NCBI RefSeq assembly: GCF_045037415.1
Contig: NZ_CP173438.1
Direction: 5' to 3' (one strand)
Length of the DNA stretch: 64,000 nucleotides
Source of the DNA: Escherichia coli
GTDB lineage: Bacteria > Pseudomonadota > Gammaproteobacteria > Enterobacterales > Enterobacteriaceae
Shown: positions 47,623-48,277 of the stretch, piece after piece
How positions within the stretch are numbered: the first letter of the stretch is position 1
Layout of the letters: each line of letters starts with the position of its first letter
Translations under genes and position numbers: made by a program
The notes under the pieces: model-generated
Told to the model about the DNA's origin: nothing
Databases searched by the model: none
Seen by the model: the letters and a program-made list of their open reading frames with translations, nothing else

Positions 47623-47889
47623 ATGGACATTAACAACAAAGCCCGCATTCATTGGGCATGCCGCCGTGGTATGCGCGAACTCGATATTTCAATCATGCCG
47701 TTTTTCGAACATGAGTACGACAGCTTAAGCGATGACGAAAAACGCACCTTTATTCGTCTGCTGGAATGTGACGATCCGGACCTGTTTAACTGGCTGATGA
47801 ATCACGGTAAACCAGCCGATGCAGAACTGGAAATGATGGTCCGACTCATCCAGACACGGAACCGGGAACGTGGTCCTGTGGCAATCTGA
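47623..47889 (+). CDS. sdhE: FAD assembly factor SdhE (CptB antitoxin)
   Basis: 88 aa, [47 protein letters not shown]. Confidence 0.93.
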
Positions 47890-48277
47890 TTTGCGCGTCT
47901 CCTGGCGCGCACAGTGGCTTTCCTTGCTGATTCATGGGCTGGTTGCCGCTGTTATTTTACTCATTCCCTGGCCGCTCAGTTACACCCCGTTATGGATGGT
48001 GTTACTTTCGCTGGTGGTGTTTGATTGCGTTCGCAGCCAGCGGCGCATTAATGCTCGCCAGGGGGAAATTCGCTTGTTGATGGACGGGCGTTTGCGTTGG
48101 CAAGGGCAGGAGTGGAGCATCGTCAAAGCGCCGTGGATGATTAAGAGCGGCATGATGCTGCGTTTACGTTCTGACAGCGGAAAACGGCAACATTTATGGC
48201 TGGCAGCTGACAGCATGGACGAAGCCGAATGGCGGGATTTACGGCGGATATTGTTGCAACAAGAGACGCAAAGATAA
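47870..48277 (+). CDS. ygfX: Inner-membrane protein YgfX (CptA toxin-like)
   Basis: 135 aa with two TM helices; overlaps the sdhE 3' end by 20 bp. Confidence 0.88.

Follow-up and report, generated by a model that had tools for sequence, protein, structure and literature searches.

The sdhE-ygfX (cptB-cptA) gene pair of Escherichia coli as a probable housekeeping operon

The overlapping gene pair sdhE-ygfX, also known as cptB-cptA, was analyzed in a 64,000-nucleotide (nt) stretch of Escherichia coli DNA (contig NZ_CP173438.1, assembly GCF_045037415.1), hereafter the window. The two genes probably constitute a housekeeping operon that is vertically inherited across the Enterobacterales and related Gammaproteobacteria, with YgfX acting as the translationally coupled membrane partner of SdhE, an assembly factor for flavin adenine dinucleotide (FAD). 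The published toxin-antitoxin (TA) label finds no support in the comparative sequence evidence, in the light of which a TA reading appears weak. The pair is already known, its RefSeq annotation ("FAD assembly factor SdhE", "protein YgfX") is correct, and the copy is in no way unusual; for the window itself it is of little importance, being a standard intact E. coli core locus. The two genes and their overlap are as follows.

sdhE (ygfY/cptB), 47623-47889, plus strand: 88 amino acids, ATG start; FAD assembly factor for SdhA/FrdA (open reading frame list and sequence)
ygfX (cptA), 47870-48277, plus strand: 135 amino acids, GTG start; predicted two-helix membrane hairpin (N-in/C-in) with a cytoplasmic beta-sandwich resembling a pleckstrin homology (PH) domain and a C-terminal helix
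Dual-coding overlap, 47870-47889, plus strand: 20 nt; sdhE ends …RGPVAI-stop, ygfX starts MVLWQSD…

The sequence common to sdhE and ygfX (47870-47889, 20 nt) is GTGGTCCTGTGGCAATCTGA.

Identity, conservation and linkage of the pair

A first-pass annotation of this DNA, made from the sequence alone, had described an 88-amino-acid sdhE overlapping a 135-amino-acid ygfX by 20 bp, between a divergent ygfZ and a convergent fldB. The overlap was recovered from both the open reading frame (ORF) list and the raw sequence, and both neighbors returned equivalog-level matches. Alignment with E. coli K-12 revealed no frameshift or stop, confirming that the pair is intact, with identity at 87/88 positions in SdhE (I42T) and 133/135 in YgfX (M32I, G103S); the downstream ORF is the YgfX orthologue, and the possibility that it is unrelated to YgfX is excluded. 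DNA identity to K-12 MG1655 was ~99% over 940 nt without gaps; in ygfX, eight substitutions were synonymous and two non-synonymous. The K-12 locus sdhE (ygfY, b2897)-ygfX (b2896), alias cptB-cptA, has the same gene order, overlap of 20 nt, GTG start, and ygfZ/fldB flanks, and the present locus differs from it by the three amino acid substitutions above. Judged by sequence, the locus is the one once named cptB-cptA, and its arrangement matches the reported CptA/CptB module, as the first-pass annotation had proposed, the proteins being orthologous to the K-12 pair so named at 99% identity. The region from 14002 to 64000 of the window is 99.99% identical to the chromosome of E. coli SA186, a uropathogenic isolate and not K-12.

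Family assignments were unambiguous for both proteins. SdhE matched Pfam Sdh5 (PF03937; E=1.8e-26, 92.3 bits versus a cutoff of 27) and, over its full length (residues 1-88), the NCBIfam equivalog PRK10878 (E=1.7e-59, 197.8 bits versus a cutoff of 120). YgfX matched Pfam Cpta_toxin (PF07254; E=2.1e-49, 167.5 bits versus a cutoff of 27.3), with residues 2-131 covering profile positions 1-132 of 133, and the same family was matched by all 48 aligned YgfX homologues. Given these Pfam and NCBIfam matches, neither gene is a chance ORF.

A survey of 5426 complete E. coli genomes, queried with 1.1 kb around the pair, found one chromosomal copy (median) in 5425 of them at 90-100% identity, annotated sdhE / ygfX / fldB. 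An SdhE alignment served as the query in a scan in which each species was represented by a single genome; it yielded 80 loci, all in the Enterobacteriaceae, placing other orders outside its scope. A PF07254-type gene lies immediately 3' of sdhE on the same strand in 80/80 of these species, and the junction GTGG[TC]CC[TA]GTGGCA[AC]TCTGA is likewise present in all 80, corresponding to the same GTG placed 20 nt inside sdhE. The ygfX frame is open further upstream in 25/80 species, and the conserved GTG is kept. The sole broken copy among the 80 species occurs in Kluyvera genomosp. 3 YDC799 (CP022114.1, sdhE at 2501-2764), where ygfX, counted from the conserved GTG, ends after 69 codons, through pseudogene formation or an error in sequencing.

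Linkage extends well beyond close relatives. An exhaustive search for distant YgfX homologues returned 135 cluster representatives, and 11 distant loci were traced to contigs. Even where YgfX has only ~27-40% identity to its E. coli counterpart, sdhE remains upstream with an overlap of 20-26 nt, and the order ygfZ / sdhE-ygfX / fldB-xerD-dsbC-recJ is retained. Directly upstream of ygfX, sdhE was present in 9/11 distant loci, overlapping by 20-29 nt in eight and separated by a 30-nt gap in one. Furthermore, contig Ga0315912_10002273 (1-2947) of JGI metagenome 3300032157 carries the series sdhA, sdhB, a MAPEG-family gene, sdhE (82 amino acids), and a ygfX-like gene (148 amino acids), the last two overlapping by 29 nt; this was the sole case seen of the pair within a succinate dehydrogenase (SDH) cluster. 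Six SdhE-YgfX fusion proteins, all singletons of 166-217 amino acids whose indels differ and fall close to the overlap or upstream of it, were set aside; such heterogeneity speaks against a conserved fusion or a programmed frameshift, and the proteins probably stem from assembly errors or sporadic mutation.

Median ratios of non-synonymous to synonymous substitution rates (dN/dS), calculated against the window, were ~0.03 for sdhE and ~0.07 for ygfX, values that are approximate because dS is saturated between genera, and the ratios within Escherichia were similar (~0.01-0.08). Amino acid change was ~2.8 times faster in YgfX than in SdhE. On these substitution ratios, both genes are under strong purifying selection.

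Little sign of mobility was found. YgfX is encoded in 12 of 72,556 plasmid records (PLSDB), comprising six of 4-5 Mb, which must be mislabelled chromosomes, three of ~0.7-0.8 Mb, and three of 51-157 kb. The 51-kb circular "plasmid" was inspected and carries bglA-ygfZ-sdhE-ygfX-fldB-xerD-dsbC-recJ-prfB with no replicon typing. NZ_CP114989.1, NZ_CP134663.1, and NZ_CP141089.1 are, with others, chromosomal sequence filed as plasmid in PLSDB, and such records call for caution in plasmid-based TA surveys. No genuine YgfX match was found among phage records, the two records retrieved being a 691-kb Salmonella contig and a 1.5-kb fragment, and neither SdhE nor YgfX matched any PADLOC defence model. 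The genomic behavior expected of TA systems (patchy presence, paralogues, association with plasmids, prophages, or islands) is therefore not displayed by sdhE-ygfX; the compact overlapping bicistron is a TA feature that the pair does possess, and it is not specific to TA systems. Taken together, distribution, synteny, selection, and mobility results point to a vertically inherited core operon and not to a selfish or mobile TA cassette.

SdhE, YgfX and a predicted membrane partnership

The function of SdhE is well understood. The protein matched PDB entries 1X6I (YgfY), 6C12 (SdhA-SdhE), and 6B58 (FrdA-SdhE) with E values from 1e-51 to 4e-58, and its RGxxE motif (RGMRE) occupies residues 15-19; the glycine of the motif, G16, forms a hydrogen bond with the histidine of FrdA that ligates FAD (PMC5773532). 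E. coli cells mutated in ygfY are viable, but their SDH activity is drastically reduced and they hardly grow on succinate (PMC5293155), and SdhE together with a dicarboxylate supports covalent flavinylation of apo-SdhA and apo-FrdA in vitro (PMC9557727). SdhE is also found in alpha- and beta-proteobacteria and in eukaryotes (PMC5042078). By analogy with the K-12 protein, which differs at one residue, the role of SdhE in FAD assembly for SdhA/FrdA is structurally established. Published structures and genetics of the K-12 protein show that soluble, five-helix SdhE binds apo-SdhA or apo-FrdA, and that its RGxxE loop positions the flavoprotein for covalent 8-alpha-N3-histidyl-FAD attachment.

YgfX had been described in the first-pass annotation as having two transmembrane (TM) segments, and both hydropathy and the helices of an AlphaFold2 model bear this out. 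Hydropathy places the hydrophobic segments at ~16-33 and 41-55, joined by a short uncharged loop and flanked by positively charged termini. The model, built from a 48-sequence alignment, had a mean predicted local distance difference test score (pLDDT) of 95.1 and a predicted template modeling score (pTM) of 0.77. It consists of a strand at residues 2-8, helices at 12-31 and 36-62, six strands between 65 and 112, and a C-terminal helix at 118-134. The N-terminal strand and residues 65-134 together form a PH-like domain in the model, with the seven-stranded beta-sandwich capped by a C-terminal helix that characterizes this fold. Structures resembling this part were RanBP2, Trio, ARAP3, Bcr, Akt, Grp1, Sin1, and Rtt106, while other structural matches were confined to the helical hairpin. 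A Foldseek search of the model against the PDB returned no significant match, and no sequence relative of YgfX with a solved structure was found; a weak whole-length Foldseek match to the NOX2 chaperone EROS (8kei_D, E 0.7) was not taken as evidence. DUF2244, the sole bacterial PH (PHb) Pfam family matched, was detected marginally (E=0.009) in 2/48 YgfX family members; Xu et al. (2010, PMC2817789) proposed that this family consists of bacterial PH domains anchored by two TM segments. YgfX is predicted with high confidence to be a membrane hairpin presenting a PH-like protein-binding module to the cytoplasm.

The geometry of the junction is consistent with joint production of the two proteins. 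Upstream of ygfX, inside sdhE, only a weak purine-rich stretch is present. The good Shine-Dalgarno sequence of sdhE, the GTG start of ygfX with this weak stretch ahead of it, and the near-invariant 20-nt overlap across 80 species suggest that ygfX translation is coupled to sdhE termination, and translational coupling of the pair is judged probable from the sequence. Ribosomes ending sdhE would re-initiate at the ygfX GTG, so that both proteins would be made together at a fixed ratio. The YgfX hairpin would insert into the inner membrane with both ends cytoplasmic and, according to the model, with its PH-like domain facing the cytoplasm. Genomic context and the literature suggest that YgfX most likely serves as a membrane-anchored SdhE partner, which would tether, regulate, or recycle SdhE where complex II is assembled.

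A more specific role can be proposed only tentatively. YgfX could be a bacterial complex II maturation accessory, in which the membrane-anchored PH-like protein would act as an adaptor binding SdhE or the SdhE-flavoprotein intermediate at the inner membrane, aiding release or recycling of SdhE and transfer of flavinylated SdhA/FrdA to the membrane subunits. Such a release or hand-off role is vacant in bacteria, which have no SdhAF4/Sdh8 homologue (Sharma et al. 2018, PMC5773532). Consistent with the proposal are the near-universal linkage, the sdhAB-sdhE-ygfX cluster, the published SdhE-YgfX interaction, and the predicted protein-binding fold. Were it true, the name "CptA toxin" would be a misnomer.

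Toxin-antitoxin and other readings of the pair

The TA literature on the pair is split, with one E. coli toxicity report set against two groups that saw no TA phenotype. On the TA reading, the pair would be a genuine type IV system in which membrane CptA (YgfX) uses its cytoplasmic domain to block polymerization of FtsZ and MreB and CptB (SdhE) counteracts it; the chromosomal pair would then be a domesticated growth switch. The original toxicity report, by Masuda et al. in 2012 and known through citing papers, reportedly found that induction of YgfX in E. coli led to growth arrest and lemon-shaped cells, that YgfX bound FtsZ and MreB, and that YgfY rescued the cells. The Pfam family name Cpta_toxin also favors this reading, as does the overlapping bicistron with the "antitoxin" first, which resembles many TA operons; furthermore, a cytoplasmic PH-like domain, if modeled correctly, could plausibly bind cytoskeletal proteins. 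Nevertheless, a type IV TA system is considered unlikely in view of the core distribution, single copy, kept synteny, effective absence from plasmids and phages, and purifying selection described above. Independent work points in the same direction. The group that characterized SdhE (McNeil/Fineran) did not detect a TA phenotype (PMC3985639), and the Shewanella pair fails TA tests, in which neither rescue nor a change of cell shape was seen and YgfX interacted with neither FtsZ nor MreB (PMC8621075). SdhE and YgfX have been reported to interact (PMC5042078; PMC3985639), and this is at odds with type IV TA systems, whose partners by definition do not interact; a two-hybrid assay of the Shewanella SdhE-YgfX pair was negative (PMC8621075). 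SdhE has a housekeeping role of its own and a wide range (PMC5042078), set against 135 cluster representatives for YgfX, and the viable E. coli ygfY knockout has an SDH phenotype (PMC5293155). In a TA survey, CptA_toxin was one of the few toxins with a presence in 80% or more of all E. coli lineages (PMC10790755), as is expected of a core gene. The reported toxicity and cytoskeleton inhibition are most likely an effect of strong over-expression and not the native function. Of the CptB/CptA module proposed in the first-pass annotation, identity and arrangement thus stand, while the toxin/cytoskeleton mechanism, which rests on one contested report, is doubtful.

Two further explanations were considered. 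YgfX might moonlight, partnering SdhE but slowing division or elongation when free of it, as might happen if apo-SdhA/FrdA titrated SdhE away, which would couple respiratory-chain biogenesis to growth. This would reconcile the conflicting reports and fits both the tight co-expression geometry and the PH-like protein-binding fold; it is, however, without direct evidence, leans on the same single toxicity report, and sits poorly with a ygfX deletion for which no growth or shape phenotype was reported (PMC5042078), leaving it slightly less probable than a genuine TA system. The other explanation, that YgfX has no functional relation to SdhE and that compact packing of two housekeeping genes accounts for the overlap, would fit the two distant lineages in which ygfX lacks an adjacent sdhE and the lack of a known complex II phenotype for ygfX. 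It is regarded as very improbable because the genes stay linked in all 80 Enterobacteriaceae species and in 9/11 distant loci even though YgfX diverges rapidly, and in view of the sdhAB-sdhE-ygfX cluster of one lineage, and the published physical interaction (PMC5042078).

The reading of sdhE-ygfX as a housekeeping operon, which is preferred here, has several points weighing against it besides the E. coli toxicity report. The case for translational coupling is geometric throughout. A linker-fused AlphaFold2 model of SdhE-YgfX, joined by (GGGGS)5 and based on 31 aligned sequence pairs together with 36 YgfX sequences lacking a partner, gave two confident domains with a pTM of 0.53 and, by its scores alone, no confident interface. 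Deletion of ygfX in Serratia altered pigment and left motility unaffected (PMC5042078), no complex II activity phenotype has been reported for ygfX, and in 2/11 distant loci a ygfX homologue is found without sdhE nearby.

The surroundings of these two loci were recorded from the fetched flanks. In CP152425.1, a 1.5-Mb genome with a ygfX homologue at 2501-2944, no sdhE occurs in the flanks; ygfX adjoins ygfZ, its upstream gene, and converges on a NadB-like flavoprotein gene beside rpoE-rseA. At the second locus, the ygfX homologue (1322-1759) lies downstream of a ketoacyl synthase gene.

For annotation, the Pfam name "Cpta_toxin" deserves caution, and TA surveys (e.g. PMC10790755) probably count a housekeeping operon as a highly prevalent type IV TA system. 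With the confident PH-like YgfX model, an overlap conserved over great distances, and the variant linked to sdhAB, the old dispute can be recast as a hypothesis open to testing, namely a role of YgfX in complex II assembly.

Surrounding features and comparison with known systems

The features flanking the pair are listed below.

ygfZ, 46400-47380, minus strand: divergent neighbor, folate-binding Fe-S/tRNA-modification protein (NCBIfam YgfZ equivalog, 1e-195; annotated in SA186 and K-12)
fldB, 48317-48838, minus strand: convergent neighbor, flavodoxin 2 (NCBIfam FldB equivalog, 1.6e-100; annotated)
ygfZ-sdhE divergent spacer, 47381-47622 (242 nt), no strand: sdhE Shine-Dalgarno sequence and a -10-like element, read from the sequence
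Stable hairpin, 48281-48310, no strand: between the convergent ygfX and fldB stops, in a 39-nt spacer, from RNA folding

The ygfZ-sdhE spacer, which differs from that of K-12 at a handful of positions, contains the sdhE Shine-Dalgarno sequence AGGAAG at 47614-47619 and a -10-like TACAAT at 47582-47587; a sigma-70 consensus scan of its 242 nt returned no site above thresholds. The hairpin at 48281-48310 folds with a dG of -18 kcal/mol (z -3.75, with 0/200 shuffles equally good), and was not called by a strict terminator scan. Its T-rich tail is present on the minus strand alone, so that it resembles an fldB terminator; it may also end the sdhE-ygfX transcript. Two terminator calls inside ygfX occurred at chance frequency and were rejected.

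An antisense ORF of 153 amino acids (47980-48441, minus strand) opposite ygfX and the 3' end of fldB has no Pfam match and was rejected as spurious because extra stops interrupt it in 72/79 other species. Two ORFs in the spacer (47395-47562, plus strand; 47454-47648, minus strand) had no Pfam match. An Rfam scan in and around sdhE-ygfX detected nothing besides a sub-threshold match to the REP-like naRNA4 in the trhA-ygfZ spacer (46340-46413, minus strand; 27.1 bits versus a gathering score of 59.5), which is probably a REP-type extragenic palindrome.

Elsewhere in the window, a bona fide type I TA locus, SibC/ibsC, lies 15 kb from sdhE-ygfX, with the SibC antisense RNA at 32748-32898 (minus strand, Rfam 133.7 bits) and ibsC on the opposite strand at ~32764-32823, annotated in SA186. 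The 6S RNA gene ssrS is at 33547-33730 (minus strand). According to the SA186 annotation, the region ~26916-28865 contains a methylmalonyl-CoA mutase gene (scpA) that is truncated and joined to the 3' part of a gene for acetyl-CoA hydrolase; next comes srsR, a pseudogene interrupted by a stop. A 1-nt deletion relative to SA186 was observed at 28698, within this remnant region. The scpA-argK-scpB-scpC operon of K-12 thus appears to be deleted in the window.

Several known systems provide points of comparison. YgfX shares with the membrane-anchored PHb proteins (DUF304/bPH_2, DUF1200, DUF2244; PMC2817789) two N-terminal TM helices, an intracellular PH-like beta-sandwich, and a C-terminal helix. 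It is unlike them in that a strand ahead of the membrane hairpin completes the sheet in the model, and the sequence links between YgfX and PHb proteins are marginal. SdhE falls within the SdhE/Sdh5/SDHAF2 family (PF03937) with a full-length match and the RGxxE motif present, its sequence being essentially that of the crystallized E. coli protein. The mitochondrial SDHAF2 homologues are not known to have a YgfX partner. N- and C-terminal extensions are present in the SDHAF2-type mitochondrial homologues and not in E. coli SdhE (PMC9557727).

Comparison with CbtA/CbeA (YeeV/YeeU), the defining type IV TA pair, bears most directly on the published label. Both are two-gene modules whose claimed toxin targets FtsZ and MreB, and there is no sequence relationship between them. 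CbtA/CbeA and its paralogues are multi-copy (CbtA homologues YkfI and YpjF) and are located in cryptic prophages, whereas sdhE-ygfX is a core locus that occurs once per genome in conserved gene order. Furthermore, unlike CbtA/CbeA, YgfX is membrane-bound, and the "antitoxin" encoded by sdhE is a conserved metabolic assembly factor.

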